The translations under genes were made by a program, and so were the position numbers. A DNA stretch of 64,000 nucleotides from Yuukianura sp. NJ FZ-2021 (Eukaryota): assembly GCA_046563655.1 (NCBI GenBank), contig CM102288.1:186001-250000 (forward strand), read 5' to 3'. Below, in pieces: positions 129 to 58,200 of the stretch (positions are counted from its first letter, which is position 1; every line of letters begins with the position of its first letter). Below the pieces are notes generated by a model. The model was not told the DNA's origin, did not search any database, and saw only the letters and a list, made by a program, of their open reading frames with translations.

Positions 129-829
129 TGCTACCCACCAACACCCCGCCCTAAAGGCAAAGGTCAAAGGTCACTGACCTCTACACTCTGCACAAGAGCA
201 GTTCCGAACAGTGTGAAGAACTGGATCAAACTGGATACTTTGGAGGTGGAAAGTGAAAGTGTTTTTGAAAATCAATAGAGCATGGGGCCTGGAAGGAGGC
301 GCGGTTTTGGAACTCTGGAAGGAAGCTGCTCCTGGATTTCCAACTTCCATATCTTCACTTTCCGAAAAGTTTCACTTTCAGTACGCAGGTTGAAATGATA
401 TTGATTCAGTGTATTGTTGTTCCAGTAACTTGGTTTAAGCTTCACCCCCCCCCCCCCTTCCCTTGAAAGGGGCGGGGCTTAAACCAATTAAGGAAGACAA
501 AGGAAGCTCCTAGCGGCAACGGAACTTTCACCTTTCAAACTTTCACTTTTGCTTTTCCACTTTTCCAAGCCGAAACTGGACAAAGTTAGAAAAGCTTCTT
601 AAGAAAAATTTCGGAAAAGCCTAATTTTATCCCCCAAAATTCCATTACTTTTTACCAATTTTACCTTGCTAACCTTACAACACTTTTTACCAGGATTGGC
701 AAAAATGTCTGTTAGAAAAAAAATCCTGAAATTTTTTTTTGAAGCACGGACGTTCAAGGAGAAAGTTTTTTGGTTGATTTTATTCAAGTCTTTGGGAAAA
801 TAATTTCAAGAGTAAAAACATAAAAGTTC

Positions 830-2049
830 TCAGCGCATAGAGACTTGAGACTGCGTTTTTTGAAGTTCCTTTTGTTGAGTTATTGAATGCTTAGACTTGT
901 CTTTGATGCTGGCCCTTGAAGGGGTGGGGGTCAAGGGGTCCTTGACCTCTAGGGGCTGACTAAGGTCAGCCTTGGGGTCAGTCCAGTTGAGGGGCACTTC
1001 CACTCTGTTCATTTTGCCTGAGGAAGTCCACCAATGTCGTTTGGTTATGGGGGAATCGGCGATGGGGCGAGCATAGTAAGGGAGGGGGTCAAGGGACGAC
1101 AGAGGGGGGTACTTCCCACCCCCAACAATCTCCATCTCCTTGTACAGCATCTCTGCTGAATCCTCTTCTTCTACGAAGAAAGCAACCACGAAAGCCATGA
1201 ACAAGTGAAGGAAAGTGTTGAAGATGCCCAGTATCTAAAAAGAAGTTAAGGGGTCATTGACCTCTGGGTCACACTAAAGTTGACCTTAAATCAGGGTCAA
1301 TGACTTACAATGACGAATATTTTGGTCCAGGACTCTTGACATGCGTAGGGCCTTCCCGTGAAGAGTTGGATGAAGCCTGATTCCAACTGTGGGAATTTGC
1401 AGGGGTGCCAAGGGACCCTGTCTGAAGGGACCCCTTCATACAGGATTTCAAAATGGCGGTTGTACTGCTCGTTGTTGTGGGCGAAGGACGTCGTGTAGCA
1501 AGCAGTTCCCACCAGAATAACAATGCAACCGAAGAGGTGAAAGTACATGTTCTAGAAGTGAAAAACTAAAAAGGTCAAAGGTCAAGGTCAAAGGTCATTG
1601 AGTTCTTACGATGTTCTTCCGGTAGTAGAGGTATGAGAGGAGGAAGCAGAGGTAGCAGTGAATGAGTGCCACTATGAACATGAATCCCCAAATGGCCAAC
1701 GCTGCTACTTGCGTGTCGTACTCTCGTTCCAGTGCTCGTTCAATGATAATTTGTTCTTCAAAGTTCAACCATTTGGACAACTTGTACTTTTTGTGTAAAA
1801 GCGCCAAGCGATCAGCGCTGTACACGTTTTTATTCCAGCGATAGTCGGCATTTGCACATAAAATTCCGAACAAGAGACAGACGATTTCGATTATCTAAAA
1901 AAACAGCAAAAAAAAGTTTTTGAATTTGTCCTAAAATATTTTGAAATTTTCAAATTTGGAACAAAATGAAAGTTTGTTCAAACATATTTGAACAAGGAAC
2001 TTACAATGGTAGTGAACTGGATAACTTTTGGTTGTTTCGGGTACACCAT
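830..2049 (-). CDS. Four-TM membrane protein (MARVEL/tetraspan-like topology), uncharacterised; 4 exons
   Basis: Exons 2049-2005, 1894-1610, 1551-1309 and 1234-830 join in frame via GT-AG introns (MVYPKQPKVIQFTTI|IIEIVCLLFG...|NMYFHLFG...|ILGIFNTFLHLFMAF...). Four hydrophobic segments, then a Pro/Ser-rich tail. Confidence 0.7.
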
Positions 2050-2159
2050 CTCGGTTTAACGCAGCAGCAGCAGCAGCTTAGTAGTTTCCGTTTTTCTTTT
2101 TTGAATCGTTAAAAAAATGCAGTTTTTAAAAAATTGATTCAAAACGCCCGTTTAAAAAA

Positions 2160-4139
2160 ATGTACAGAAAAGCACTGTTTGTTTTACTCCGTACGTAATT
2201 GACAACAATTTTTTTAAAAAGCAAAGGCGTTCATCAAGGCAACTTTAAATTTTATTTTTTACTAATTTTTAAAATTATATTTATGTTTTTATGGTATATT
2301 TTTGTTTTAGGTGCTCCACTACAAATTGAAGTGAACACGTACATTGTTGAGCTGCTGCATGTTGATGAATTTAACGAAGAGTTCACCCTTGACCTCTTCA
2401 TTCGTGAGTACTGGGTAGAACCACGCTTGACCTTTGTACCCAAACCAAACATCGGATCAACAATACATGTGAAGAAACCAAATTACACATTTTCAAACTT
2501 TGAAATCTAATTTTTTGAAAAATGAAAAACAATTAAAAATTGTGTCCTTAGCTGGATCCTGAACACTCTGCTTTAATCTGGTACGGAGCTCTGGGTGAAC
2601 TAGTAACTGAACTAAAGAGTAAATTATCAATTTGTAAATAAGTGTAAAGATTTGAATGGATTTGATGTTGGCCCTTAAGGGTCCCAGACACGTTTGTGGC
2701 CAATGAACGCAAGGAATCCTACTACGTGGACACCGTCATGCAGGAATGGATCCGAGTCAAATCAGATGGAGAAGTTCGCAGATCAGTCCGGTAAGGCAAA
2801 AATAAGTTTTAACAAAATCCTTTTTCAAAGAAGCAGTTTCGTTTTGAGAATTTTGACTTTTGTTAGTTTGCAATTTTTTGAATTTTGTCAACTTTAGAAG
2901 AACACTCACGGCGGCATGTCCAATGACATTCGTGATGTACCCATTCGACAGACATCTCTGCACTTTGGACATTGAGTCATGTATGACCTTTGACCTTTCA
3001 ATGACCTTTGACCTTGACATGTCAATGTTTTTGAGTAGTTCGGCAGGACAGTGAGAGTGTGCATTATGGATGGCGTGGAGGGTCAATCACGCCTGAACTC
3101 TTTTCCGCTGGAATTGCCTGGAATGCCACGAATGGAACTGTGGTGCCCTTCCGTGTGATGGCACTCCATGCAACGCAACATGAAATTGAATTCTCCAGTG
3201 GTAGGTCAATGACCTTTTAGTCCCAGAGGTCAGAGGTCAAATCTTTTGAATTTCAGGAAATTTTTCCCGTCTTGCTGTGGAAATTACTTTGAGGAAGTTC
3301 TGGGGCGTGTATTTCTCCAAGTACTACGTTCCGCTCTTCCTCTTTCTCTTGATTTCATTTGCAACTCTGTTCATCCGCACGGCTACGTTGAATTTCGCCT
3401 TGAATTTTGTTACTGTAAGTTCTACTTTTTAATAAAGGTCAAAGGTCAACTGAGGTCAATGACCTTTCACTTTCTAGTTGGTGACCTTTCACCTCTTCCT
3501 GCTCATCCCTGACATCGGAGCGAGTGTACCTAGAACAGAGTACTACAAAGCCAACGACATCTACCTCTACATCCACCTCGTCTTTCTCTACGTTTCATTT
3601 CTTGGTAAATTTTGTCAATTTCATAATTCAAAATTTTGAAAAATTCTAAACTTTGAAAACTCAAAAATCGAAATAATTTCAGTGAGTTTGGCAATTCTAA
3701 TTGGAAGGAAGAACCAGGAGCCAGGCTTTGAAGTAATACTAATTTAAAAAAAAGTTTTCGAAAAAAAAAATTGATTGGAAATTTCCAAATTTTTAAATTT
3801 TTCTAAAGTTTCATGAACCGAAGACGTATGTTCGCGTGAGCAAAGATCCAAGTCCAGATGAGAACAGCGGTGGAGACAAGTCAAAATCTCTTCATCACAC
3901 GCAGACGCAAACCACTTTTGAGAGTTCCATCCACAAGATCCTCAAGTAAGATTCAGTTTTTAATTAACTAAGTTTTTAGATTTAATTAATTAATTAACTT
4001 TAGGGTGTGTTCAATGCTGCGTTGGATCCTGACTGTGTCCTACTTTGTATTTCAATTTGTGTTCTGGATGGTCGTGCTCATTTGGGCACAAGCATACCTC
4101 TTGCCCGAAGAACTCGTTCTAGTGGACTACGACTTCTAA
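2160..4139 (+). CDS. Divergent Cys-loop ligand-gated ion channel subunit (anion-channel-like branch)
   Basis: Spliced translation gives FTLDLFIREYWVEPRL, WVPDTF (loop A), Cys-loop CPMTFVMYPFDRHLC, GNFSRL, M1 YFSKYYVPLFLFLLISF, PRTEYYKANDIY before M3, and M4 ending FWMVVLIW...DF*. The putative first exon 2160-2190 (MYRKALFVLL) is less certain. Confidence 0.85.
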
Positions 4140-4416
4140 AGGTCAACGACCCCATGACCTCTTGACCTTTGTATTACTCATGTACATCGTTCTTTTTAAA
4201 GTTAAGTACATGTCCCAACACAATTCTAACAAATTATAGTATTCAAACTAAATCTCACCTAACACACTGCCTTCCGATTCTTATTGAGTGCATTATGTTT
4301 ATTTGTACGCGTTTAAATGTAAATTAAATGTTAATTAAAATTAACCAAGTGAAAAGAACTTTGATTTTTCTCATTTGATTTCTGCAAAGAGAAAAAAACC
4401 CAGTATTGAAAAATTA

Positions 4417-10651: not shown

Positions 10652-11383
10652 ATGAAATTGTTGTTGTTGGTAGCCCTGTGCGTGGCTGCTGCTGCTGCTG
10701 CCGGGTCTTCCCAGGGCAAGAACCAGCAAAATGGTCGCTTCTACTTTTACAAAGTGAGGCCAAGGAATGCCCAGCAACTTGAAGTTCTGGTCCAGGAGCA
10801 CCAAGAATACGTAATGTCACTTCAACTTTAACATTTCCAAAATTTCGAATTTCTGAACTTTTGAAAATTTGAAATTTAAAAATTTTGAAGACTGTATTCT
10901 ATTTCAGGGAGACCATCCACCAGTGTGGGTCAACTCGTTCCGAGCTGGAGAATCCGCCTACTGTTTTGTGGACCAATCAAAAACGAGCTTCTTCGAACGT
11001 CTCCTTCGCCAGAACAAAATTCGGTGGGATTCCAAGGGCCTGTCTCTCGTTGAGTCCATTACTGCCAAGCAACCTAGTGCCGCTCAAGGTGAGTAGAGGT
11101 CAAAGGTCAAATGTCAAATATCAAATGTCAGGTCAGAGGTCAAAGGTCGTTGACTTGTGTTTCAGCTGAACCGAAGAACCCGTCGTGTGACTGTGACTAC
11201 CACTCTGGTGGGTGCATGATCAGTGAGCCACCACCGGAAGGCTATGCTTGCAAGTGTGTGTACAAGGGAGCATGGACTTGCACTGGCTACGCCTTCTCCT
11301 GTGACCCCGGAGTTCAGTGCCCTGCAAACTGCTCATCACTCGAATGCTGCAAAACTGGACGCGGAGACTGCGGCGGATACTAA
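10652..11383 (+). CDS. Secreted protein: signal peptide + M14 carboxypeptidase activation-peptide-like domain + 12-Cys C-terminal domain; 3 exons
   Basis: TATAAA at about 10560. Exons 10652-10810, about 10908-11088 and about 11166-11383: MKLLLLVALCVAAAAAAG...FYFYKVRPRNAQQLEVL...VWVNSFRAGESAYCFVD...CDCDYHSGGC...GDCGGY*. Confidence 0.75.
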
Positions 11384-12477: not shown

Positions 12478-14494
12478 TTACTTGAAAAGGCGACGTAGAA
12501 ATGAATTTGTAAAAACTTGTTCTGGGTCATATTTTTTGAAAATTCGCGTACTGTACTCCCAATCTTCTCTTCCATAAACTTCCGGTGGATAATTGTCCAG
12601 AAAGTCCCAGTTGTCCCACCCAGCATCTTTAGAGTAAGCATAGCCCTTGGACCATTCTGGACGCACGATGACCCCTGACCTTGTCAAATTCTGCACCAAG
12701 TACTCCTCCACTCGAGCCATGAACTCCGCCATGTTTGGTGAATTGGGGTAGGTCAAACAGTCAATCCAAATGGCCGTGTCGTAGTCCTTTTTCCCTTCAA
12801 TTGGTTTAATCGGAGACAGAGCTGGTGACCTCAAGGTCAAGCCAGGGTCATCGTCTAATCCGGAGACCCTGATTTCCAGTGGACCATTCACAGGATACTT
12901 CCCAGCATCTGCATAATCCTGGATCAAATCTTCGTAAAATTTAGTAAATTCATGAAGTGTTGATTGGACCCTAGACCTTGGCAGTATCAGTGCATATCCA
13001 TTGGCTGTTACTCGGAGTGTTGTTGGTTTGACGTAGTGCAGAAGGTGGTATGAAGGACCCCAGAGGTCAAACGTCAATGTAGTTGCGAGTCCTGTAACCA
13101 AGGTTCGTAAATAAAAAAAAAACTTTTCTAGACTAGGTTGTCCAATAACTCGAAGTTTTAAAATTTGTTTGAAAGTAGCTTTGGCTTTTTTGCATGTATA
13201 ATAAATGGGATTAAAAGTTGTCTGGAGCAAGATTTTTGAAAACCCAGAGTTATTGGACAACCTGTTGTAGGAAATACAAGTCGGTTGTCAAGGAACCTTG
13301 CCTGTAGCAATGATGCTGATTTGAAGATTTGCAAAAGCTGGAGCCATTGACCATGACCCTGTGACGAGTTTATCTGCTAAGTTGTTGACTGGTTCTGGAA
13401 TGTTGTCTGTAAAAACGTAGTTGTAGGGCGCATGCGTGCGGCGGGAAAGTAACGGTTTTGTGTCTGCGACGGACCAAACTTTGAGCCACGGATTCAATGT
13501 AAACGGAAACCAAATTGCTTCGAGACTGCCGTAAGAGTCTAGGAAAAAGCTTAACGGTGTGTCACCAAATTTCAAGTTTTTGGGACTTTGAAATAGCGTT
13601 TTAGCTGAAATGTCAACTCTGCTTATACATCTTAGGTAGGTCAATGGGGTCACTTCAAGTGTCACTTTGGTAATAAAAAGACGACCGAGATTCAGAATCA
13701 AAGCGCGGGAATCGGGATGTGAGCGATGAAAAGTTTGAATTTCAAATTCTTCCGCGTCGGCATTCCACACGACAAGGTCGATTGACAAAACCAAGTTGCT
13801 CAAAGTACCGCGGTTGCCGGTTTGACCTTCCATAGGAATTCCTGTCCCGTGACCTCCAATGGCAATGACCCCTCCGACAGTAACGTCGCCCGGTGCTGGA
13901 TGACCCAGAATGCCGTGACCTTTGACCTCCAGAAAAGCAAGCAGATCTTCCCAAAGAACGCCAGATTCCACCGTGACTGCTTTTATGCCGTGATGAGTTG
14001 TCATTTTAATAGAGGTCAAATTTTTCGTCGTGTCCACCAGAATGGTGCGACTGCAGTGCCCTTCTTCTCCGGTGATAGTAAGAGGTGACCAGTTGTGCAT
14101 TTGACCCAGTGGTCGAACGTTGTAGCGATGGCGACGTGCCCAGTTGGCTATGGCGACAATGTCGCCAGCACTTTGAGGCGTCACGGTCCAAATGTGGTCC
14201 AGTTCGATTTGTTTGGCCCAGTTGAGATAAGAACTTTCTTGGACAGAGAGATGCTCGGGAAAGTTTGAAAGACCATTGCAAAGCAGTTCTATTAAGAAAT
14301 GAAATGAAATTCAAAATCTCAAAATTTCAAAATTTTTGAAAAATGTAAATTTTGAAGTTACGTTTCGGGGGAATCTGATGGAAACGAGTTTGAGAGGTGA
14401 CAACTTGTTCCTGATTGGCACAAATCCGGGTATTGTTAACAATGGACCAAACGAGACAAGGAATCAAAGAACTTGGGAGCAAACTAGTCTGCAT
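12478..14494 (-). CDS. Class II (covalent-FAD, VAO-fold) cholesterol oxidase-like enzyme, bacterial type; 3 exons, 577 aa
   Basis: Exons 14494-14362, 14288-13302 and 13091-12478 join in frame. Motifs RPLGQMHNWSPL (FAD-linked His), PAPGDVTVGGVIAIGGHGT, APYNYVF, YPVNGPLEIR and RPEWSKG match the Brevibacterium/Burkholderia-type cholesterol oxidase family as I recall it. Confidence 0.85.
13099..13300. mobile_element. 202-bp non-autonomous TIR element (hAT-like MITE) forming intron 2 of the cholesterol oxidase gene
   Basis: TIR CAAGGTTC (13099-13106) / GAACCTTG (13293-13300). Symmetric subterminal inverted 17-mer AGGTTGTCCAATAACTC (13135-13151 vs 13247-13263). Flanking 8-bp direct repeats CCTGTAAC (13091-13098) / CCTGTAGC (13301-13308). 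Confidence 0.85.
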
Positions 14495-22007: not shown

Positions 22008-22677
22008 TTATTGTGGCGTAGTTTTTCCAGGGCGGCAGATGAACTTTGACCCCTTGGCAGTAGGCTTTGACGGAGACGGTTTGAATGCGCATGCTTCGCA
22101 TTTGCCACAAGGTTGGTACATCGGAGGAGGTGGAGTGGGGAGCATGACGATTCTGGGTTCAGAGTTGACCTTTGACCCTGCACTGTCTCCTCCCCCGAAT
22201 CCTTGACCTTGACCTGGAGAAGCGAAGCCGCCGTGACCTTGGCTCAAAAACTGGCCCAAATCGCCAGGATTCCCAACAGCAATTCTGAAAGTGGCTGGCT
22301 GTTGACCTTCGACCTCTGCAATAAAAAGACAAGGTCAATGACCTCTGTTACTATAATGCTTTGGTTTATGTTAAAAGTGTTTGACCTTCTCGGATTCCAG
22401 TGCCAGTGTAATATCCAGAACTTTGTTGACCTTGACCTTGACCTTGGAAGGGGTAGGGGACTGCACTGATGCCGTTGTAGGTGCTGTTTGCATTGGGAAG
22501 GACGAAGGGTGAAGTTCTAGAGGTCGTTGACCCTCCTTGACCTTGAGCTGCCCCCAGAATGTCTCTCCAGTCCATCGTCACCACTTGGACATTCCGCTGA
22601 TCTTGGAGGCCATTTTGGTTCGACTGTTGATTATGTCCAGCCACACAGTTCCAATTCCAGTTTCCAGCATTCATCAT
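22008..22677 (-). CDS. Gly/Gln-rich low-complexity orphan protein with CxxCxxC near the C-terminus; 2 exons
   Basis: ORFs 22366-22677 and 22008-22259 join through an intron at about 22385-22317. It shares the motif NVQVVTMDWRDILG with the gene at 47481-48480. Confidence 0.55.
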
Positions 22678-23615
22678 TGGAAAAAGTGTGAAACTACTTG
22701 TTCAGAAGAGGTGTAAAAACTATTGATTCCTTCACTAGTAATTAAAAAAAATTGAGCTATTCAATTAAAAAAATGAACTTTTCAATTGAAAAGGTACGAG
22801 TCTTTTAATTCCAATGTTTATAATGTCTAAGTTTCAAACATGTTTTGTTCACATGGCAACAAAACAAAATTAAAATGAAAGGCATTTAAAAAGAGAGGGC
22901 GACAACAAATAAAATTTCCAATGTTTTCTCGCTTTCAATAAAAATTTTACTTTCACTGTGCGTTGGCTTACATCTCAGACAAGGTTAATCATCATTCACT
23001 TGTCCATTTGGTCGAAGTAAACTTTATGGTGGGCAATTGTTTTCCAATTTCGGGAACAAATTCGGCAAAACGGCCACTCGATTTTTTACGATTAAAATTT
23101 CGTTTTATATCAACTTTTGGGTGTAGATTCCGAATCTGAAATCCGTTTAATTGTTGCTGTTAAATGCTAACCAAACCTAAAATATAAGCCCAATTTCGAA
23201 ATTTCAAGTATAAAGGTTTTGTTGACTTCTACCGTTGGTTTTGTATACGCATTAAATCGATTTACACATATAGTTCAATAGAGTGCTGAAAAACGCTGAA
23301 AATGGTTTAAGTACATAAAGTCATTGCTTTTTCTTGATCAAAACGCACTAGAAATTGAAATTTTAAGAGGACAGTTTGGACTGAACCATTTTAGGAGACG
23401 ATTATGATCTTTAATTAAAACACTTCCATAAAAACCCGAAAATTACTCCCAATTTGAGCTTAATTGAAAAAGAAACAATAAACTTCCTATTCAATTTTGA
23501 TCACTTTTTATTTAAAAGGGACGCTGCCTTTTTTTAGTGAAAGTCAGCCAACCAGGTCCGTGTTTTGCTAAAAGAAAATTTCTCATTTTTTGAACAGAAT
23601 TTTTCAAAATTGAAA

Positions 23616-24942
23616 ATGGCCGTTGAAGAAATGGAGAAGAAGAGTAATCGGTTGGCTCCAATATTTGGGTTGTACAAATCCTACTTTGCTGCAATAAGGC
23701 TCATGGGCATATTTCCATACGAAGTTAACGTTGACCTTGCTCAAGTTGACCTGCGTAAAGGTCACCTCTGGACAGCATTCAACTACTTTAACTTTGTCTA
23801 CATGACTCTCTACTGCATCAAACCACAAATACTGTTCTATCTCAACCATCGCTCCAACTACCAATTCGAAACTGTCCAAAATGGATACATTTTCCAAATG
23901 ATTTGGATTTTCGGATTCTTCACTGTCACGCCCATCTTCATGACGTTTTTCTTCTACTCCGAAATCATCCGGACCACAACTTCAATCTGGCTCAGACTTG
24001 AACAATATGTAGCAGGTTTTACAAAAATTTCAAAATTTAAAAAAAAAATCAAACTTAAAAATTTTTTAATATGTTTTGATTCTTTTAAAATCAGACCATC
24101 TGAAGGAAAGCGATGAAGGAATTGCAAAACGCACAACTTTTTTAAAACATCAACTTTTGTGCTACGCTGGAGCTTGGTGGGGCTGTTTGCTAACGATGAT
24201 CCCCATCACATACATCATTCCCCGCTTCCCGCCATTTCTCAATTCAATTTACTTGGATGACCCCAAGGTCAACCCCGAAGCAGGGTCAAGGTCACCGGGT
24301 CAAATTTTGATCCAATTCACTTTTTCCACTTTGGAGCTCCACATAAGCATCATGGCTTGGGGGCTCATCGGAGGGTTTGATGTCCTGGTGAGCATGATTT
24401 GCCGAAGTCTGTACAAGATCATAGATCGCCTCAAAGTAGAGTACATTCTAAGGGTCAGAGGTCACCAAGAGGTCAGTGACCTCATCTCCATCTACCGCTC
24501 ATGCCAAATAGTTGCTACTCAATTCGGAACTATTTTTTCGCGCCTTTTGTTTTTCCAAGAAATGACGAACCTTGTTTTGTCGGTGTTTTTGCTGGTGGGG
24601 GCCCTTAATGGGGACAACGCCATTCTGAGTACGTTCTGCCTCTGTAATACATTTGGAGTCACTCTGCGCATGTACGTGCTGTATCTCCCCATGGCCAAAC
24701 TGGCTGTCAAGTCAAAGTCGTTTGTTCAATTTCTACGCAGAGAGAAGAAAGGTCAAGGTCAAAGGTCAGGGAGGTCATTGACCTTGGAGGAAAAGAGACT
24801 CCTGGATTCTGCTAAACCGTTTGCTATAAAAGCTTGGGGGTTCCATAAAATAACGCCTACGTCTATTCTGGACTACACGCTGGCCCTTGTCTCCTACTAT
24901 GTCACCATCAAACAGGTCAAGGCCGCTGAATTTCTGGAGTAG
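23616..24942 (+). CDS. Gustatory-receptor-family (7tm_7-like) chemoreceptor; 2 exons
   Basis: RLMGIFPY near the N-terminus, multiple TM segments, and C-terminal AWGFHKITPTSILDYTLALVSYYVTIKQ matching the GR TM7 signature. Phase-1 intron 24016-24094. Confidence 0.8.
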
Positions 24943-25369
24943 TTTCAAAATTTTAGTTTCTTTCAAAATTTCCATAGTTGCTATCTCAAATTTGAAGGGC
25001 ATTCAGTTTAGCATGCAGTAGAATATGTGAACTCAACAAATGAAAATAAAGTTACAGCTTTTGTTCTTCCACAATCCCAAAACAACTCTACAGCTTTATT
25101 ATGCAATTTAAAAAGATGACAAGCAAAAAAGAGGAAGGATTTATCGCATCTCGAGGTTTGACCTTTGACCTTCTCTGTTCTTAAAGTACATCTTCCACTT
25201 CCAGCATAGCCTAATCTCCTATTACATGCTACATACTACTTTGTTCTAAGAAACCACACAGTTATGTACAAAGTGTATTCAGAGTGCAAAGTTGTTATGT
25301 GCAAAGTTCTGAATAGAAAATAAAACCAAATTGACCGATTTGTATAGTTTTGCTCAAAATTTTGAAATT

Positions 25370-27217
25370 ATGGAAATGGGGGAACATAGTCGAAATGTCA
25401 AAAGTGAGGACAGAATTGAAGTTGTTGAAGACGAGACAAGGATACCCAAGGAGGATTCCATAAGTAAGGAAAATTGGTTTTGAATTTTGAAAAATTTGTC
25501 AAAAAATGGCAGTTTTTTTTTGAAATTTTTGTTTAGTTCCACTAGAACGATGTGCGTGGTGTTTCAGTTTGCGGGGAGTTGCCATTTCCAGTATCACAGT
25601 CATGGTGGTTGTGGCCATTTTGGTTTTTGTTTTGGATTTTACCGTTCTCGAAGTTCATCGTATGAAAAAAATAGAATATGAAACAAAGAAATTTGAGATG
25701 TTTCAAGATGGCGGACGACTTGAAGCAGAACCGACATTCCAAAACACTTTTTACTTGAAAACGATTGACCTCAACCAAGTAGAGGCAAATGTATCTGTCC
25801 TCTATGACTTCATGACCTCGACTGGATATTCACTCGAGGTCATTCGTCTCCGAGATTTAAAACTTACCGGGACTCTACCAAATAAGTACAGAGGTCACAC
25901 AAAATCACAAAATCATTTTCACAAATTCTAAAATTCAGTTTGATTTCTTCCAAAATTTTAAAAATTTGGTTTCTCTTTCAAAATTCAGAGCATGGACTCA
26001 GTCGGTACGCCCTGAAAGAATTTGTGTTTGAATCCAACGAGCCGATTGGTCCAACGGCCAATTTTCAACTTGATGACTGCGACGAATGTATCGTGGAAGG
26101 AGTAAATTCAAGTTTCGCCGCAATTCAAAAGTTGCGCTGCCTTCCTTCGCTTCTGTTCCACCTAAAGAGTGCAGAGGTGATTTGGTTGGGAATTCATCCG
26201 TCTGACCCCATGATCATGGACGGAAACATTACGCTAAATATCTACGGTCGATCGCTTCTGCGCGTCATACACTCAGATTCCAGAGAAGACTATGACGTCA
26301 CAAGCATGATCAGCGACTGTGAACCAATCATCGGCTGGTACAGGTTCAACCTCAAAAAGTTAGCACTCAGTGGATGCACTTTAACTGCAAACACTTTAGC
26401 AGCTATTCTGCGCACTGGAAAATTAACCCACTTGACCCTGGACCGGGTCAACTTGACCGAGTTCCCGGGAGGCGTGAGGATGTCTCAACTTTTTCAAAGT
26501 GCTTTAAATTTAGAACAACTCACGATCAAAATGCATGCATTCAAAAGCAACGGAATCTTACAAAGATCACACTTCACAAATCCACAATACGCTGTTTTGA
26601 TGACAGACTTTCCACGTTCGTTGAAAACTTTAATTTTGGCAGGAGTTTTCATTTTGAGTCCAAAGCTTGACCCTATCAGAACCTATTTGACCTTGGACAC
26701 TCTCAGACTCAGCGACATCAACTTTCAAAATCAATATGCATTGGACTGTTTTCAAAACGGAATTGAGTTCAAAAAACTTGCTTTTCGACAAGTTCAAATT
26801 CAAAATGGAAGCCAAATTGGAAATATTTTGGAGGATTCAACAGTTTGGATTCCGTTTTTGGACAAAGCGATGGAGAAAGCAAACTGGATTTGGATTGAAA
26901 ATCCTTTCTATAGACCGTACAGTTTTTGGTACAGAAATAAAGTGGAATCTGCTGGAAATCCAGGAACTTTAAAACCAACCATCGATAACGAATTAGCGGC
27001 ATGGAAAACTTGGCTGCGAAAAAGAGGAATTGACGATCTGCTTCTACACGATGACCCAGCTTTTAAGTTAATAAAGTCTGAAGGTCAAGGGTCATGGGAA
27101 ATGGAGACAAGCCATGACGGGTCACCGCCAGAAACTCCAAACGCTGCACTTTGGTTCCACTTTTTACGAATGGGCACGTTTCTCAGAGAAAATCTATGGA
27201 ATATAGTCGATTGGTAA
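25370..27217 (+). CDS. Uncharacterised type II-like membrane protein with LRR-like repeats; 3 exons
   Basis: Short acidic N-terminus, one TM (ITVMVVVAILVFVL), then repeated LxxLxL units (LKKLAL, LTHLTL, LEQLTI, LKTLIL, LDTLRL) in the 425-aa ORF. Confidence 0.6.
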
Positions 27218-27375
27218 AAAAAATGAAGAGGTCAAAGGTCATTGACCTTATAACTTGCCAAGGTCATTGACTTTTTGACTTGCCAAGGTCCAAATCTATG
27301 GAATATAGTCGATTGTTAAAGAAAACTGGAAGGTCAAAGGTCATTGACCTTTTAACTTGCCAAGGTCATTGACCT
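27190..27375 (+). repeat. About 100-bp-period tandem duplication spanning the stop codon
   Basis: AAATCTATGGAATATAGTCGATTG...AGGTCAAAGGTCATTGACCTT..AACTTGCCAAGGTCATTGAC occurs at about 27190 and about 27292. Confidence 0.8.
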
Positions 27376-27519
27376 TAAACATTTACGTCCACTCTTGGGG
27401 TCAAAGTTATTTGTGGCAAAATGGTTCATTTTACTTAACTTTTAGTTTTTCTCACAAATTTTTCAGTAGTTCAGTAGAGGTCAGAGGTGAGGTTTACTCT
27501 TGTTAATTGTGAATCATCC

Positions 27520-27593
27520 GTAAATTGTAAATCTGTAAATTGTAAATCTGTAAATTGTAAATCTGTAAACTGTAAATCTGTAAATTGTAAATT
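27520..27593. repeat. Minisatellite, 15-bp unit TGTAAATTGTAAATC (about 5 copies)
   Basis: Directly visible tandem array. Confidence 0.9.
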
Positions 27594-47122: not shown

Positions 47123-47267
47123 AGAAGACATTGTAAAATACAAACTAAAAACCTCATCCTTTTCTCCACTCCCTCCAATGAGGCCTCCTTTAAGTTTTGT
47201 GTGAGGACCTATGAGATGGAGTGGAGAAAAGAATGAGGTTTTTAGTTTGTATTTTACAATGTCTTCT
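47123..47267. repeat. Long inverted repeat (about 50-bp arms, one mismatch) between convergent genes
   Basis: AGAAGACATTGTAAAATACAAACTAAAAACCTCATCCTTTTCTCCACTCC vs GGAGTGGAGAAAAGAATGAGGTTTTTAGTTTGTATTTTACAATGTCTTCT. Confidence 0.85.
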
Positions 47268-47480: not shown

Positions 47481-48480
47481 TTAGCGACGATTGTTTCCAG
47501 CGTAGACGTTGCCCCAAGATTGTGCTTGACCTTGTTGTTGCTGTGAGGTCATTGTTTGACCTTGACCTTGACCTTGAGGGGATCCCGTGTAGACACTGAA
47601 TTTGGGTTGCCCTGGTTGAACTGCAGTGGGCTCCTTGAGTCCACTGTAGTTAGCCACTGGCTCAAACGACACAATTCGCAGTGGAGTGGAACCATCTTCA
47701 GGTTGAGCTGCTCCACCTACAAGAATAAAAAAAATGAAATTTTGATTTTTGACCTTTGAACTTTCCAATTTTTTAAATTTTTACCCATTCCAATTCGAAT
47801 TTGGCGGTTGGCATTTGGATCGCCATTTCCCGGAGCCATGCTCACTTGCAACCCTTGAAGCCCCGTCTTTCCTCCAAGAAGGTCTTCCCAGTTCATACGA
47901 ACGTACTGGACATTCGGATTGGCTGAAAAATAATCCAAAAAATTCACAATTAAAAAAAAATTAAAATTTTGAAGAAAATGTTCGAGAACAAAAAGTTACA
48001 TTCAACTTCTGGTGGAATTCCGTTTGTCGTGGCGTACGTCTTCATGCCAGCCGGCATCACCATTTGTCCACCGCTCCCGCCAGATTGAGCCACCGCCTGG
48101 GCATGCTGTTGTTGTTGTTGTTGCTGTTGTTGTTGTTGCTGTTGTTGTTGTTGTTGCTGTTGTTGGTGCCCATATCCGGGGGGTGTCGATCGTGCACGGG
48201 CCATCGATCCACCATTTGGTGGCGCAGCGTAGTAGCGTTGCTGTTGCTGCATCTGCTGCGGAGACTGTTGCGTCCAGTTGTGTCGCTGCTGCTGCTGCTG
48301 CATTCCGTAAGGCATGCTGCCATAGACAGAATTGGACGAGCCGATCCGGTTCATGGACCCTTGACGACGAATCGCTGCCGATCCGGGAGGGTAGTTGTAC
48401 GCAGTCTGACTCGGCACAGGAGTAGCCGTGTACCGTCCTGCTGGACAGCCTTGACGTGACGAATAAGAGTTGTTGTACAT
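47481..48480 (-). CDS. Gln/Gly-rich low-complexity orphan protein with a polyQ tract; 3 exons
   Basis: ATG at 48480 (MYNNSYSSRQG...), about 20 Gln (CAA/CAG, 48106-48165), then exons carrying NVQYVRMNWEDLLG and ...WGNVYAGNNRR*. GT-AG introns. Confidence 0.65.
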
Positions 48481-49273
48481 TTTTACTTTACTTGGTTTCA
48501 ACTTTCAAAATTACGAAAATTCAAACGGAAAGATTAAGTTTTCAAAATTGAAAAATTGTCTGACAAAAATACGTCCTGCTTCTAGCTTGCCTAAACTTAT
48601 ACTGAAGATGGAAAACAGACCTAGAACATTGGCATATCCAACTGAAATTTTTCAACAAGCTATTAGGTTTGCTAACAAACAGAATGTTAACAGGCGTCAT
48701 GGTAACAGAAGTTTTGAAAATTTTTGAGACAACTTATACAGTTTTTGGATTGTCTTTTCTTTAATTTTTTTTCCAAAAAGTGACAGTGTTACAAAAGTGG
48801 CTAAAAGAGAGAATTGCTAAATTTGAAATTGTATAATGTTTCAACCACGATTTGGCTAGCATTCTTTGGGTTTTGTGTTTCAGAATTTCAACAAGGTACA
48901 TTTTAGATGTCTAACAAGGGACTTTTCAAAAAAGTTTTTTTCTTTTTGAAAAAAAAATTGAGCTCTTCTCATTTGCTTCCTCATTTTTTCTACTTGTCGT
49001 CAATCTCATCCGACCTTTTTCTACCGAATTCTTCCGATTGCTTCCGAACTCTTCCGATTTCGCAATTCGTTCTGTTGTACTTTTAACTTGGTGGAGGGAA
49101 GTGAACACTTTTTGAATTTGGCACAGAATGGATTGGAAGTGCTAAGGACTAATGAACAAGTTGACCTCGTGTGCATTAGAGGTCATTGACCTCGGGGTCA
49201 TTCGAGGTCATTGACCTCATACGGTTGTTTCCCTGTCGATCCTTATGTACTCGACTGCTGAATGGGCGTTGTA

Positions 49274-52200: not shown

Positions 52201-55200
52201 AAAACAAGTCGTTAAAACCGTTGAACCTGACGTAAAAATAATTTGACCTTATCTACGATTTCGAGGAAAAGTTGAATGGAGTTGAGTTTCTCTGGAGAAA
52301 ATGACGAGAGAAAAAGGAAGTGAAAGTTGGTCATGGTGTTGTTAGGCTAGGTTTTCCTTTAATGTTATGTTGAGGAGAAAGTGCACTAAGGTGAAAGTGC
52401 GAAGAACATGATGAAAATAAGACAATAAAAGCGGGTTCAATTCATATTTTATGGGACGTCGTTGGGGCCTCTCGAGGAACCAACAACGGCACTTCCAATG
52501 ACTTGTTAAAAAACGAACTAACTTCCACCTTCCTCGCAACGCTTACTCTCCACTTCAAAAATTTCACAAAAATTAATCTTAAAATTTTTATCTACCTTCC
52601 AACAGTTTCTTATGAATCTTTCGTTTCAATGAATAAAAACAAATTTCTTGTAAAACGACATTTTTGACACGCATCACGCATTGTTTTTAAACCCTAAAGA
52701 ATAATGGTGAAAGTAAAGTGAAAACAATTTTTAGTTTTGAAAAAATTAACCCCAAAAATTGTGTTTCTAGCTTACGTAAAATGTGCAATTGTAATTTTTG
52801 TTTGAATAATCGGCACTGAGTGAGTCAACAATGACTACATCAACGTCCAGCTCAAAACCGCTTAGAGACATGGGATATGGCGGTGGCGGTTTTGATTCTA
52901 GTGGATTTCCATAAGGTGTCGCGTGAAAGGCAACTAGAACTTCCGGACCTGAAAACAAAAATTTGAAATGTTTGTGAAGGAGAAAATTGTTTATAAGCGA
53001 GGATTTAGGGTAACTCGATTAATTTTCAGGAACTAATTACATGGACAAAGTAGTTCACTATTTTGTTCCTTACCGGAAGAAGTAATTGGTGGAAGCGTAG
53101 CAGTGGAGCATATTTTGAGTAGAACGGGGTCATCTGTGGTCGTTCCGTCGTAAATGATGAGTGTATCCGTAGTTCCTGTACAGTCATCCCAGGCCATAAA
53201 TGTGTCAGCATGGCTCGACAACTCACTCGTCACTCCACTACCCGCCCGCCCGCCGGGTATTCCCCGCAGTTGAACTTTGTGTGGATTCGGTTGCGAAATT
53301 TGAATTAGCACGCGTTTGCACGTCGGGATTTCCCGTTGTCTTATGGTAAAGTAACAAGTGACGTTTCGCGGGTAGAGACCCGGGTAATTCGGGGTTTGGA
53401 GTTTGCAGGGTTTCTGGTGACAGGTATCGAATACCCGGCTACAATAAGTTCCGGGTACAAGTTCCCCTCTTTCGATGGGGTTCGACGGTACTCCATACCT
53501 GTCGAAACAAAACCCAGCATGGGTTAAATTGACCTTTGACCTTTATTCAGGGTTGACGTACCGTACTAATGCAAGGCCACGAGGTATAAATTTGTAGCGG
53601 ATTTTAAATTCGAATTCCAAAGGTTGTTGGCTCGACGTTCCCGAAATGACGGTTTTGTCACCCTTGGTCATCGTGCGTACCGTTTCGGAACCGGACTTTT
53701 GAAACGTTTCGGATTCGTTTTTCCCGCTGGCGGTATTTCCTCCGATACTAAGCGTAAGTGCTACGGCACTCATTTCCGAGTAGTACACTGCGTATCCGGA
53801 ACCAAATCCACACCACTGACCGCCCGTGATTGGACGACTAATTTCAGCCACCTAAAACACACAGAAAAACAATAAAACACAGTGTTAAGACCGTAAAACA
53901 CAAAAACAGTGTTAAAACGGTAAAACACAACAAGTAAAAAACACAGTGGTGAAAGCGTAATAAAATCAAAAGAAAAGAGTCAGTGTTGAAAACTCGAATC
54001 ACAAAAATGAATTAATAGAAGCAATAAGACTTATTGCTTCTTATTATTACTTATACGTATACTTAATTAAACTTCAGAATCAATAACTGCGTAAAATACA
54101 AGGAAAAAAAAATTGTTTTTCATGGCTCAAAGAACGCACAAAGGTGAAAAGTGTACAACCTTTAAAAAAAACGCCAAAAAAATTTTTTTAGCACAAATTG
54201 CTCGCAATTTATTTCTTTTCTTTAAAAAAGAACACGCCAGAAATCTATCCGTTTCAGCACAAATTGGTGCCCTAATTTTTTTTTTACTTTTTGCCCACGA
54301 AATTTGAAGATGTGTATCTCACACCACTTTTGGGTCAAAATGGTTTTAGCTTTCACTGACTTTCATCGACCGAAATCGGATGAGTTTGTGCTTTCTCCAA
54401 TGCAGCTACACTTATACTACTACACTCCTCAAATTTTATGGAAGTCTATTGACGTTTATGGTTTCATTCCCTCTCCTCCTTTTTTTTCTTTTCTTCCAAT
54501 TCACTCAACTGGAAAACTAGGCTCAACTTTCTTTTTCACATAAAAAAATTTCAGCTTTCCTTCTTACGTCTTTCAGTTTCCTAAAAACTTCACTTTTCTC
54601 TCTACAAAACAAGTCTTCTTTTTTTACAAAACAAGAAAGTAATTGCCCTCCAGCAACAACGGAACTCGTCACTTTCATGGCACAAAAAAACTTTCACCAA
54701 ACTTGAAAACACTTCCAGAAAAAAGTGCTTTTCAACAAAAGCTAAAAGAAAAAGTTGTTCAAAATTTTGAAAACCAAAATTCGAATTTCAAAAAAAAAAC
54801 TACCTGCAATGATCCATCCGAACATCCATCGACTGTAGGAGACGTGAGTTGGCCAATGTTAATCGAATCAAAGATGATCTGAAACGTTAAACAAAATACA
54901 AAATAAGACAATAAGTAAAGCACAAGAGTGAAAGTGAGGTGTGAATTAGTTATTCGAGTTAATTAATTTTTAATTAGTCTTAACACAGAAGTTGATCAAG
55001 TAAAGTGTTTTAGTAAGTGTTGGATTAAGTATACGTTAGGTCCATTTCTAAACCGAGTCGTAACTAATCTTTTGTGGGTGGATTTAAGTGTCTCTGGAGA
55101 AAAGGCGGGAATCTGAGAACGAGGATTTATGCCTTTCACTTGTGGAAAACGAAACTCCTTTCTCCAAATTTCAAATTAGTCCACTTAACCCGCCTTTTCT

Positions 55201-58200
55201 ACTTGTACTCTTTTTCTAAAAAGGAAGTTTTTGAAATTCGTTTTTTGAAAAGTTTTTGTATCAAAAAACCATCTTGAAATAGTAATTACGGGAGGTGAAT
55301 TAAAATTTTGGTTAGTTTGTGAATTAATTATGAGTTGTAAATTTAATCAAGTTTGAGCGTGTGTAATTAATTTTGGCTCAAATGCTAACAAATGACACGA
55401 GAGAAGTGAAACGGAATTTGAAAAAGTGAAAGTTTGCTTTCTGCGAGTTCTCTTTGTTGGCTGCTCTTACAAAGGGGGAGCCTGGAGCGTGTGTAGCTTA
55501 ATTGTACAACAGAGGAACATAATGGCACGTGACAGGGGCGGAGCTACGTTCGTTTTAGCTGGAATTTGGTGGAAGGTGAGAGCCAGTAAAAGACAATGGA
55601 CAAAGTTGGTTTTTAGTCTGGGAAGGAAGGAAGTTTGTGTTATTTGGTCGTAGGGAAACGTCAACGGAGAGGAACTAATTGCTTGTCTCTAGTGACACCT
55701 CGTGTAACTAAAGAGCCAGGAGTCATGGGACCCATAACCATTTTAGGCCAGGTCAAAGGTCATCATGACCCATTTCCATCAAAATTTATATCCAAACCAA
55801 AATCCTCCCTCCGTTAACCAAACGACCTCCTACATGCTAATAGTATATTTTAAGTTTGGTGTAAAATAAATGCAAAGCTTTCAAAAAAATTCAAAACTTC
55901 ATCAATTTCGTAACCTCCGAGCGAGACGCCAAGATTGCTTTTGAAAAACATAAAAATCAAAAACTAGGAGAAAGTGCTTAAAAAAATGGAATATGTAAGA
56001 ATTTTTTTTCTGATGTTTTTTTTTCAAGCTGTATTATGCCAATATTTTTCAAATTTTGTGAATTTTTGAACCATGAAAGGCGTATGGTAAAAGTTAAATA
56101 CCCAAAACGAGTCTTTTTTTATTTTAAAATCGTTAGCTCCAGGGACAAACGACCCGGATTTTCACCGACTTTTTTCGAAAGAAGAGAAAGCGGAAAGTGA
56201 AAGGACAAAGTCTGGAGTAATGAGAGCTCTTGCCGCTCTTGACTTTTGGAATTTGAATTTTCCGTCCACCATTAAATTCCAAATCTGGTTTTGTGTAACC
56301 TCGGGAGGAAGGTGATTGGTGGAATGTCAATAAGGAAAAACCACTTTGGCAGCACGACATTCCAGGAGACTCACGCAGTGTCAATATTTCTACTCACTCC
56401 AAATTGCCAAACCTCAAATTCAAAGTGTACCAAAATCCCTGGACGAGATGCCACTCTGTCACTGCTAAAGCGTAACCATCCAAATCCTTACCTCAAGTAA
56501 CCATGCGAAACATAGCTTTTAGTTGGAGTTTATACCAAGAGTCACTGAACCCAAGGTCATTTGTCAGTCCAAAACTCTGTGGTACAAAGTTAGCTTTGAA
56601 ATGTCTCACAATTTAATTTGATATGAGATTTGTAATTCCGTTTTTGATTTGATTTCATTTCTTTTTGGTTCATCTTTTGTGATTGCAAATTGATGCATGT
56701 TTGAGTGGAAATAGAAATCTTGATGAACTTTTTTGGTTTGAGGTTATTGAAGGTGTGTTGATGAGTTTTAGGTTTGATCGAAAGCGTAATAAATCACTGT
56801 ACGGAGAATCGGTTTGTGCCGTTTCCATTACTTCTCAGACATTTCGTGTCGAAGGGCTTGTTTTTGTTCAAATGATTGATTACTTTTAGTTGGTCACACG
56901 GAAGTAAACCACTCATACTAAAAACACACGTTTCATTTAAAAAGAAAACTTTCTAAAAGAAGCCAGTTTCACATTTCGCCAATTTCCATTTATCCTGTGA
57001 TAGAAAAGTCAGCAAGGGAAAACTTTTGCACATTTTTGAAAACTGTTGTAGAAGAAGCTAAATATGACCAAGATATTTACAAAAACTAACAAAAATTGGG
57101 GGGAAAATAGTCTAAAAAAATATGTAATTCGGAAAAGTAGACATTATAAAATTTGGAGAACATTTTATGAAATTGGAACTGTGCCAATTAAGAAATTTAA
57201 AAAGGAACAAATTAGATAAATTAGAAAATGTGAGAGTAGGAGAAAGTACTGTCAAGCTGGAAAACTCAGAAAGGGAGAAAACTCTTGCTAAAAGAAGTGA
57301 GCGGGAGTAAATGTCAAAGAAAACGGAGGGAGTAACTATAAGTGGAGGAGAAAGTAAGATGAAATGGGCGACAGAGATGGAGGGGACGAGTGGAGGTTGA
57401 GTTGAGATATGTTGTGTCCCTCTCTGTGTCCTCCGTCATCATCATCATCATCTTCTGTCCCACTTTCTTTTGATCTGTCCAGTGTCATGATCCTCTTCTT
57501 CTTTTTCCCATTGCACTACACACTACTAAAAGTAGGAGTGAGTGAAGAAGATTGAAGGGTTGTAGGATTTGGTAGATGATTTGGAAAGCCGTTTCGTCTT
57601 TCGTCTCCAAACTCACTTTTTCCTCCACTCAGACCAAATTGACCAGAAGATTGAAAATTTCTTTCCACAAAAACACGTTTCTCAAAATTTAGAGCCCTCA
57701 ACAACTACTGAGAGTAGAAACTAGAAAAACTTTCTCTGGGTTCTTAAATTTCATTTTATATTTTCCGATTTTTTAAGCTTAGGGTTTCCCAGTAACGTTT
57801 AAAAAAGTTTGGTCTTTGTATTCAATTTTAATCGAGTTGACATTTTCATTGAGAAAAAGTTCAAAAGCTTTTTTCAAATTTTTCCGCGAACAAAGTTGAC
57901 CGGGCACAGGAAGGAGAGTGGTTTTGAGGGTTTTTAACAACGAAGTGGAAATGTTGTCAATTGGATTGTATGCTGTTTCAAAGAGAAGGACAGGAAACAG
58001 GTCTTTTCACTTGGACTTTTCTCTTTCCGCCAAAATTCAAACAACTCAATTTCAATTTCAAACTTCCTCCTCGTCCCTCCAAATCCACAGTTATTCGTGT
58101 TTGGACTTTGGCTGAAAGTAAACTTAAAATGGAAAATAACACAAAATCAAATCCCGTTGCAGAAGTGCTAATAATGAAAGTTGTAAAGGAAAGTTCAAGT

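Follow-up and report, generated by a model that had tools for sequence, protein, structure and literature searches.

Arrays of the nuclear-receptor-type word RGGTCA over gene blocks, exons included, in a 64-kb window of the Yuukianura sp. genome

Here, we describe a 64,000-nucleotide (nt) stretch of the Yuukianura sp. NJ FZ-2021 genome (assembly GCA_046563655.1, contig CM102288.1, positions 186,001 to 250,000; hereafter the window) in which the word RGGTCA, known as a half-site of hormone response elements, is repeated in ordered pairs and arrays over blocks of neighbouring genes, in tiny introns, in 3' untranslated regions (3'UTRs) and in coding sequence. We tentatively propose, with less than even confidence, that these arrays would serve as dense binding-site platforms for a factor of nuclear-receptor-type specificity that labels multi-gene domains. 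The window is AT-rich animal DNA (38% G+C) with very short introns, and all of our conclusions rest on this one window; its genes and arrays are collected in Table 1.

A preliminary description of this DNA had pointed to an unusually dense motif, and the counts place its density far above chance. The two strands together hold 142 copies of AGGTCA, where 100 dinucleotide shuffles gave 29.6 +/- 5.3 (largest shuffle 46), and relative to base composition it is the most enriched hexamer of the window (5.4x); between positions 150 and 4170 there are 29 sites, or 7.2/kb against 0.46/kb. The word is also sharply bounded. When its one-letter variants were scanned, AGGTCA stood at 4.8x (z score 24) and GGGTCA at 2.7x (z 6.5), with the remaining 17 of the 18 variants, all five other transitions included, at 0.3x to 1.2x; the word is therefore RGGTCA, without a halo of decayed copies. 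The base 5' of AGGTCA is a purine at 129 of the 142 sites and the base 3' is an A at 85 of them.

What sets AGGTCA apart from other frequent words is its clumping. At a spacing of 6-8 nt it forms 40 close pairs against 0.94 expected, by far the most of the hexamers compared (words that use no fewer than three different letters and number 40 copies or more). Only ATTTAC, which belongs to a local tandem repeat of 7 pairs, and AAGGTC, a shifted reading of the same motif, have a clumping ratio near that of AGGTCA. A second enriched word family, GAAAGT/ACTTTC, is present in 153 copies against 43 expected; upstream of the first genes (240-560 and elsewhere) it often takes the form GAAAGTGAAAGT, in either orientation. 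TTCAAA/TTGAAA words are enriched as well, filling AT-rich introns. At the 6-8 nt spacing, neither GAAAGT/ACTTTC nor TTCAAA ranks with the 40 hexamers that clump most, and thus the clumping behaviour is specific to AGGTCA.

The excess consists of pairs and arrays, as clusters are far above expectation and singletons only slightly so: 130 of the 195 RGGTCA sites lie within 43 multi-site clusters, against a mean of 0.83 clusters (maximum 4) in 100 shuffles, and 65 are isolated against 48.9 +/- 7 expected. Among AGGTCA neighbours, 66 of the 141 adjacent pairs are no more than 30 nt apart, against 9.2 (maximum 20) under random placement. We name their geometry by the terms direct repeat (DR, with the spacer length as its number) and inverted repeat (IR), as used in the passages of PMC1785376 and PMC2952856 that define DR elements and the IR-1 site. 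The 66 close pairs comprise 18 DR1, 8 DR0 and 12 IR1 (AGGTCA-n-TGACCT), with DR2 to DR5 nearly absent (5 pairs); the DR1 spacer is an A in 16 cases and a G in 2. Everted pairs (TGACCT-n-AGGTCA) with a spacer of 0 or 1 do not occur in the window, where the closest spacer is 2. The half-site RGKTCA and the fixed dimer geometry by which response elements are recognised are both present, and the earlier perception of a nuclear-receptor-like motif and geometry is upheld: only RGGTCA is enriched, and DR1, DR0 and IR1 dominate. All of the arrays that had been named are at their places (161-173, 1572-1597, 2984-3014, 3203-3215, 3436-3448 and 3453-3465), as are the further clusters at 11097-11142, 22166-22543, 24258-24784, 27229-27375, 47557-47574, 49180-49217, 55750-55771 and 62240-62259. 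One architecture, AGGTCA-a-AGGTCA-w-TGACCT, recurs in at least 7 places (161, 3436, 24750, 27229, 27331, 55750 and 62240), and at 3203-3239 the palindrome and the direct units stand the other way round.

Tandem Repeats Finder (TRF) found about 14 separate arrays built on one 6-7-nt unit, with periods of 6, 7 and 13 and units in 2 to 7.7 copies; each other tandem unit of the window was found once. In their head-to-tail units of 6, 7 or 13 nt the arrays resemble micro- and minisatellites, from which they differ in that about 14 independent arrays share the unit, that inverted junctions are common (12 among the arrays) and one-sided, and that arrays within open reading frames (ORFs) carry no insertions or deletions, those in coding frames aligning to homologues without gaps. 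Arrays with IR units are predicted to fold at -6 to -15.6 kcal/mol (z -2.7 to -7.8), most strongly at 49162..49217 (-15.6 kcal/mol), and DR-only arrays are unstructured (z -0.4 to -1.1). A hairpin or cruciform as the common denominator of the arrays was considered and rejected, as three of eight arrays fold no better than shuffles.

The islands had been presented as an intron feature. This holds for eight introns (e.g. 1552-1609 and 3415-3477), but exons and 3'UTRs carry them as well: the islands at 22166-22543 and 47557-47574 are mostly exonic, reading as (GGT CAA)n, and those at 23732-24919 are part of a coding frame that stays open. We compared the ORFs with synonymous-codon shuffles made within each of them (1000 per ORF). 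The ORF at 24070-24942, in the gene for a multi-pass membrane protein, has 11 AGGTCA against a mean of 1.36; the first and second ORFs of the Gly-Gln-rich protein gene have 5 against 1.69 and 5 against 1.08; and those of a cholesterol oxidase gene have 5 against 0.93 and 6 against 1.81. In all five ORFs the observed count was reached by at most 2 of 1000 shuffles, and the same shuffles of the importin-5 (IPO5), LUC7, polyQ and MYND ORFs gave no AGGTCA excess. Open frames contain 2 (oxidase), 6, 1 and 2 adjacent DR or IR pairs, against at most 0.12 per frame in the shuffles. Coding sites occupy all three frames and both orientations, and over ten gene regions the sense and antisense sites stand at 83:58, the sense surplus coming largely from Gly-Gln codons; thus, the signal is one that double-stranded DNA carries.

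A by-product of base composition or codon usage, or plain chance, would account for the sparse regions, where counts match chance (28-47 kb has 13 AGGTCA, with about 9 expected), but not for 142 sites that none of 100 shuffles reached, for 43 clusters against a shuffle maximum of 4, or for an excess that survives synonymous-codon shuffling. On these shuffle results chance is excluded, and we give it next to no weight.

Two coding regions show how such sites came about. The 24070-24942 ORF carries in-frame arrays at 24258-24302, 24452-24482 and 24750-24784; it has 20 homologues among 1.84 billion representatives (best identity 68%) and is therefore a real gene. Opposite the three array-coded stretches of this ORF, the 68%-identical homologue (P0241) has unrelated residues, the same in number to within +/-1. 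The second region is the cholesterol oxidase gene, whose two halves match a solved bacterial cholesterol oxidase (PDB 3js8) with E-values of 2e-83 (N-terminal) and 3e-48 (C-terminal), and for which all named proteins among the 240 matches listed are bacterial (best identity 49%). The gene has introns and is flanked by animal genes, and so it is most simply explained as horizontally acquired; homologue matches and gene context together make this a probable case of horizontal gene transfer. Its in-frame stop at 13288-13290 probably lies within an intron of roughly 180 nt, inside which there is also a 40-nt inverted repeat (13124-13163 / 13235-13274).

The homologous coding sequence of the oxidase holds 19 RGGTCA in 1647 nt, or 11.5/kb. 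When the protein was re-coded with its own codon usage the density was 2.64/kb (maximum 6.07 in 500 trials), and 30 bacterial homologue proteins written in oxidase codon usage gave 1.65/kb, or 0.78/kb in that of IPO5 and LUC7. The 19 sites were thus most likely gained in the host lineage and, given a gene probably acquired from bacteria with sites far above both the homologue and the re-coding expectation, the process that produced them was directional. Its two DR1s are at 13916-13928 and 12669-12681, and the former encodes E-V-K-G-H in gap-free alignment with E-K-A-G-L of the bacterial enzyme. Since the aligned coding sites of the two genes show no change of length, these sites were made by substitution or equal-length replacement rather than by insertion or slippage, which are therefore not the whole story of the motif.

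In non-coding DNA, arrays are found in 8 of 30 introns that we curated by hand, relying on GT-AG ends and on frames that continue across them (positions hold to about +/-2 nt; the automatic list consisted of 393 noisy candidates). Genes of the dense blocks bear them in 7 of 16 introns, against 0 of 11 in LUC7, IPO5, polyQ and MYND. The eight array-bearing introns have only the splice consensus and the motif units in common, with no full-length likeness of the introner type. In the ligand-gated channel gene, the three shortest introns (55-63 nt), which are consecutive, hold four sites each, in the order TGACCT x4, then mixed, then AGGTCA x3 plus TGACCT, and its six remaining introns (58-107 nt, G+C 0.16-0.37) are free of sites. 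The heptamer array at 11097-11148 includes degenerate units (ATGTCAA, ATATCAA), and each copy of the 102-nt duplication at 27190..27376 carries AGGTCA-a-AGGTCA-t-TGACCT and an IR1-like unit, all 3' of the stop codon and thus 3'UTR-like. Two exon-intron junctions (22317-22385 and 92-178, both on the minus strand) are seemingly supplied by the motif itself, as AAG/GTCAAA and AG/GTCAGT with the slash at the junction; there, to judge by ORF continuity only, AGGTCA would act as an unusual GTC splice donor.

Might the arrays act in RNA? Complementary AGGUCA and UGACCU arrays in one transcript could pair and steer splicing by exon looping or back-splicing, or units containing UGAC could supply branch points in minimal introns. 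The opposite-sense arrays in three consecutive channel introns and the folding of IR-containing arrays (-6 to -15.6 kcal/mol) speak for such a role, as does TTGAC, which we take to fit the branch-point consensus yUnAy. But the same word stands in unrelated genes and in coding sequence of all frames and orientations, its orientation relative to transcription is inconsistent, DR-only arrays are unstructured, and pairing needs no single fixed hexamer across genes. We therefore consider pairing and branch-point supply, taken together, very unlikely.

The arrays are unevenly distributed along the window. AGGTCA numbers 12-17 per 2 kb at 0-4, 12-14 and 22-28 kb and 6-7 at 46-50 kb, against 0-2 over 14-22 kb and most of 28-44 kb, and the cluster-rich zones are 1-4.2, 10-14, 22-28 and 47.5-50 kb. 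Clusters per 4 kb are over-dispersed (variance 8.63, mean 2.69; reached by 0 of 5000 uniform placements) and RGGTCA singletons co-vary with them (rho 0.71). The near absence noted earlier for LUC7 (8.1-9.7 kb), IPO5 (15.5-20.0 kb), the pair of LITAF genes and 28-47 kb is confirmed, with 1, 1, 1 and 13 AGGTCA, respectively. Array-rich genes encode the channel, the unnamed membrane protein, the oxidase, the Gly-Gln protein and the lineage-restricted multi-pass membrane protein, and include a 443-codon orphan ORF; array-poor genes are the conserved housekeeping genes and three rhodopsin-type receptor ORFs. A dense block covers 4-6 kb with two or three genes on both strands. The suggestion that the motif marks some genes thus stands as regards unevenness and needs changing as regards the unit, which looks like a multi-gene block of this size rather than a single gene.

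Regional co-variation of clusters and singletons is also what local copying predicts. A non-functional motif drive, in which a seeded motif spreads locally without benefit to the host, is the main rival reading and is possible, if doubtful, in our estimate. It would proceed by small duplications and replication slippage, and by gene conversion or short templated copying that takes nearby arrays as its source and may run in either orientation. It would account for tandem periods of 6, 7 and 13, for the degenerate 7.7-copy heptamer array and for the array-carrying 102-nt duplication, as well as for identical strings of 21-25 nt that recur, e.g. between the introns at 1568-1601 and 2998-3031 and, as a 25-nt string, at 27225-27249 and 62236-62260. 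Array-rich genes are mostly lineage-restricted or fast-evolving and, besides the channel and the oxidase, have no Pfam family, and equal-length replacement in coding loops is as compatible with short-patch templated copying as with selection. But the halo of mutated copies due from a neutral repeat is absent among the one-letter variants, and slippage cannot make inverted units, of which there are 12 of the IR1 type and none everted with spacer 0 or 1. A 7-nt coding duplication would shift the frame, and yet DR1s sit in open frames, one of them in a gap-free alignment; the 11 array-free introns of IPO5, LUC7, polyQ and MYND should have been equally free to change. To our knowledge, there is no established mechanism in animals that drives a single hexamer by point substitution.

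Could the arrays instead be remnants of a mobile element that insertion has scattered, either very short copies or footprints of miniature inverted-repeat transposable elements (MITEs) or a retroposon's 3' tail, made of a hairpin plus a repeat? A single architecture in at least 7 places, with the two direct units always on the same side of the palindrome, and exact matches to the 20-nt DR1+IR1 string in 16 metagenome contigs, some with further arrays, speak for such an element. But the arrays share nothing beyond the motif units, terminal repeats and target duplications were not found in the window, coding sites arose without length change, and the palindrome/direct order is reversed at 3203-3239. 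A repeat-family search of the window returned only motif units without shared flanks (D5 and D12), so the refuting case of a single longer dispersed repeat is absent here, as are those of no enrichment and of uniform distribution; 17 of the 18 one-letter variants are not enriched, contrary to the spectrum of mutated copies expected of a dispersed element. No reverse transcriptase or transposase family was detected in the 62 long ORFs of the window covered by the Pfam scan, and Rfam covariance models gave 0 matches at gathering score over the whole window. Three of the 16 metagenome loci (L004, L006 and L011) are prokaryote-like by ORF length and GC and look like chance matches, and 19 ORFs from 8 of the 13 others have no Pfam family. 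Such remnants are, in our judgement, decidedly unlikely. Some of the metagenome loci, on eukaryote-like contigs, also contain similar AGGTCA arrays of DR1, DR0 and IR1 type (L001:842-1798, L009:715-1158 and L014:1516-2072; also L014/L015), and L001, for example, has 12 sites in 2.7 kb, a hint that the RGGTCA array phenomenon may exist in other organisms.

In light of these alternatives, we favour, tentatively, binding-site platforms as the reading of the arrays. Homotypic RGGTCA arrays of DR0, DR1 and IR1 type have accumulated over blocks of 4-6 kb and two or three genes; a DNA-binding factor with nuclear-receptor-type specificity would read them; selection or a binding-dependent fixation bias would keep the sites exact; and the outcome would be a regulatory or chromatin label at the level of the domain. 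Tiny introns and 3'UTRs, whose sequence can change freely, show the arrays most clearly, and coding sequence inside the dense blocks has been recoded toward the motif as well. Candidate readers in a hexapod are presumably the USP/HNF4/Svp class for DR1, EcR-USP for IR1 and the FTZ-F1/ERR/HR38 class for extended single sites. The sharp specificity for RGGTCA, the one-sided DR1/IR1/DR0 geometry, the lack of decayed copies, the lack of strand bias and the coding sites made by substitution all fit protein recognition better than a decaying repeat.

Several points weigh against the proposal. The other classical half-site variant, AGTTCA, is at 1.18x and is not enriched. A density of up to 7.5 AGGTCA/kb over 6 kb, with occupancy of exons, is well beyond that of ordinary hormone response elements. 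Several arrays look duplication-derived (periods of 6, 7 and 13, the degenerate 7.7-copy array and the 102-nt duplication), and as small duplications contribute to array growth, part of the excess is mutational in origin. Gene classes sort uncleanly, for the three rhodopsin-type receptor ORFs lie in a motif-poor stretch (35.7-44 kb), so that a simple rule of tissue-restricted genes fits imperfectly. The synonymous-shuffle null ignores codon-pair context, and the reader protein, its identity and any effect of the arrays are predictions drawn from sequence alone.

The closest known systems are, by likeness, hormone response elements, receptor sites multiplied by Alu elements, and homotypic clusters and gene-body recruitment motifs. 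With hormone response elements the arrays share the half-site RGGTCA, the DR1 with an A spacer, the IR1 palindrome and the double-stranded character; they differ from them in density (up to 7-20 sites/kb over gene bodies, where an ordinary enhancer has one or a few), in occupying exons and 3'UTRs, in the AGTTCA result, in the scarcity of DR2-DR5 (5 of 66), and in that binding is only predicted here. Homotypic site clusters are known from fly enhancers, and the GA-rich MSL/CLAMP elements and the periodic A/T cluster (PATC) introns of C. elegans are gene-body motifs; some of these systems expanded through simple-repeat growth. Our arrays are like them in that a short motif at high local density singles out some of the genes or a chromatin domain, and unlike them in motif, organism and the invasion of exons. 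Receptor sites have also been multiplied by a repeat process in Alu elements, which the relevant passages of PMC1785376 and PMC3252374 describe as a source of DR2 retinoic acid response elements and HNF4alpha sites; there, as here, pairs of half-sites reached high copy, but Alu sites ride in a 300-nt element with recognisable flanks, whereas the window arrays share motif units only and some window sites arose by substitution in coding sequence. Among the titles and abstract openings returned by a literature search, none concerned dispersed RGGTCA arrays in an arthropod genome.

Table 1. Genes and RGGTCA arrays of the window (positions count from its first letter)
Feature	Position	Strand	Sites or remarks	Basis
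Array	161..180	.	AGGTCA-a-AGGTCA-c-TGACCT (DR1 at 161-173 plus IR1)	
Unnamed membrane-protein gene	about 830-2050	-		
74-nt intron, unnamed membrane-protein gene	1235..1308	-	5 RGGTCA at 1251-1299	inferred
58-nt intron, unnamed membrane-protein gene	1552..1609	-	four AGGTCA at 1572-1597, spaced 7, 6, 7 nt	
Ligand-gated channel gene	2.2-4.1 kb	+	Neur_chan_LBD	Pfam
55-nt channel intron, just 3' of Cys-loop exon	2981..3035	+	four TGACCT at 2984-3014	
56-nt channel intron	3201..3256	+	IR1 AGGTCAaTGACCT at 3203-3215, DR1 at 3227-3239	
63-nt channel intron	3415..3477	+	DR1 at 3436-3448, IR1 AGGTCAaTGACCT at 3453-3465	
Channel gene 3'UTR	4140..4168	+	three sites, first 2 nt past TAA stop	
LUC7 gene	8.6-9.6 kb	-		Pfam
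77-nt intron	11089..11165	+	7.7-copy heptamer (AGGTCAA)n at 11097-11148	
Cholesterol-oxidase-type FAD enzyme (12.5-14.3 kb), bacterial-type class II	coding sequence 12481..14310, gene to 14361	-	FAD_binding_4 + Chol_subst-bind	Pfam
Importin-5 (IPO5)	15.5-20.0 kb	+		Pfam
Gly-Gln-rich protein gene	22008..22701	-	exons read (AGGTCA)n as (GGT CAA)n	
Intron of Gly-Gln gene, roughly 69 nt	about 22317-22385	-	IR1 at 22332-22344	
Multi-pass membrane protein gene	23616..24942	+	no Pfam family	
DR1, about 220 nt downstream of multi-pass membrane gene stop	25159..25171	.	TGACCT-t-TGACCT	
443-codon open frame	25886..27217	+	10 RGGTCA sites; no Pfam family	
102-nt tandem duplication	27190..27376	+	from last codons of 443-codon frame (stop 27215-27217) onward	
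Rhodopsin-type receptors (three ORFs)	35.7-44 kb			Pfam
Gln-rich protein, near C-terminus	47527..47574	-	(AGGTCA)3 read as QGQGQGQ	
3'UTR-like, 60-110 nt past stop codon	49162..49217	-	two IR1 palindromes + further sites	
63-nt intron, CUB/DUF7805 gene	53499..53561	-	DR1 at 53530-53542	
Array	55750..55771	.	AGGTCA-a-AGGTCA-tca-TGACCC	
Array, probably intronic	62240..62259	.	AGGTCA-a-AGGTCA-t-TGACCT	
MYND-finger gene				Pfam
CUB/LDLa/DUF7805 gene				Pfam

The surroundings of the arrays have features of their own. The importin exon is closest to a protein of the springtail Orchesella (56% identity), with other insects at 48% or less, which makes the host a hexapod with Collembola as its nearest group. 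Eleven ORFs of the dense blocks gave no real family with Pfam at E-values up to 1. The Gln-rich protein bearing QGQGQGQ also has a CAA/CAG run (48107-48165, minus strand) that encodes about 20 glutamines, and just 3' of the 102-nt duplication a 15-nt tandem repeat (ATCTGTAAATTGTAA) is present in about 5 copies with 95% match (27516-27609). The two LITAF-domain genes stand in tandem without motif arrays (37572-38103 and 39452-39975, about 1.87 kb apart) and, with an identity of 76% across 288 nt and of 93% across 70 nt, arose by local gene duplication. Between them there is a near-perfect 32-nt palindrome (38794-38858, 94% complementary, 1-nt spacer) and a second inverted pair of 50 nt (38825-39079). 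The longest inverted repeat of the window (47123-47267; 65 nt, 89% complementary, 15-nt spacer, no Rfam match) may represent a MITE or a gene for a hairpin RNA.

A bolder version of the platform proposal, which we hold to be unlikely, is that the arrays are a genome-encoded address label, bound cooperatively by an abundant zinc-finger protein of receptor type that would set the chromatin state of entire multi-gene blocks. Possible roles for such a label are dosage compensation or chromosome-specific entry, or the licensing or silencing of genes that are lineage-specific or horizontally acquired, and its strength would have sufficed to reshape both the synonymous codons and the loop residues of genes in the blocks. 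If true, animals would have a counterpart to the motif-saturated genomes that have been described chiefly in bacteria.

The bacterial-type oxidase gene offers a rare internal clock for the gain of sites. If the arrays are due to neutral drive, then a hexamer has been spread by substitution in an animal, which would be unusual and would call for caution when enhancers of small arthropod genomes are predicted from motifs. Should the pattern extend to the whole genome, a transcription-factor word saturates selected animal gene blocks, exons included, and this would provide a testable link from a simple sequence label to gene class, chromatin state or chromosome identity.

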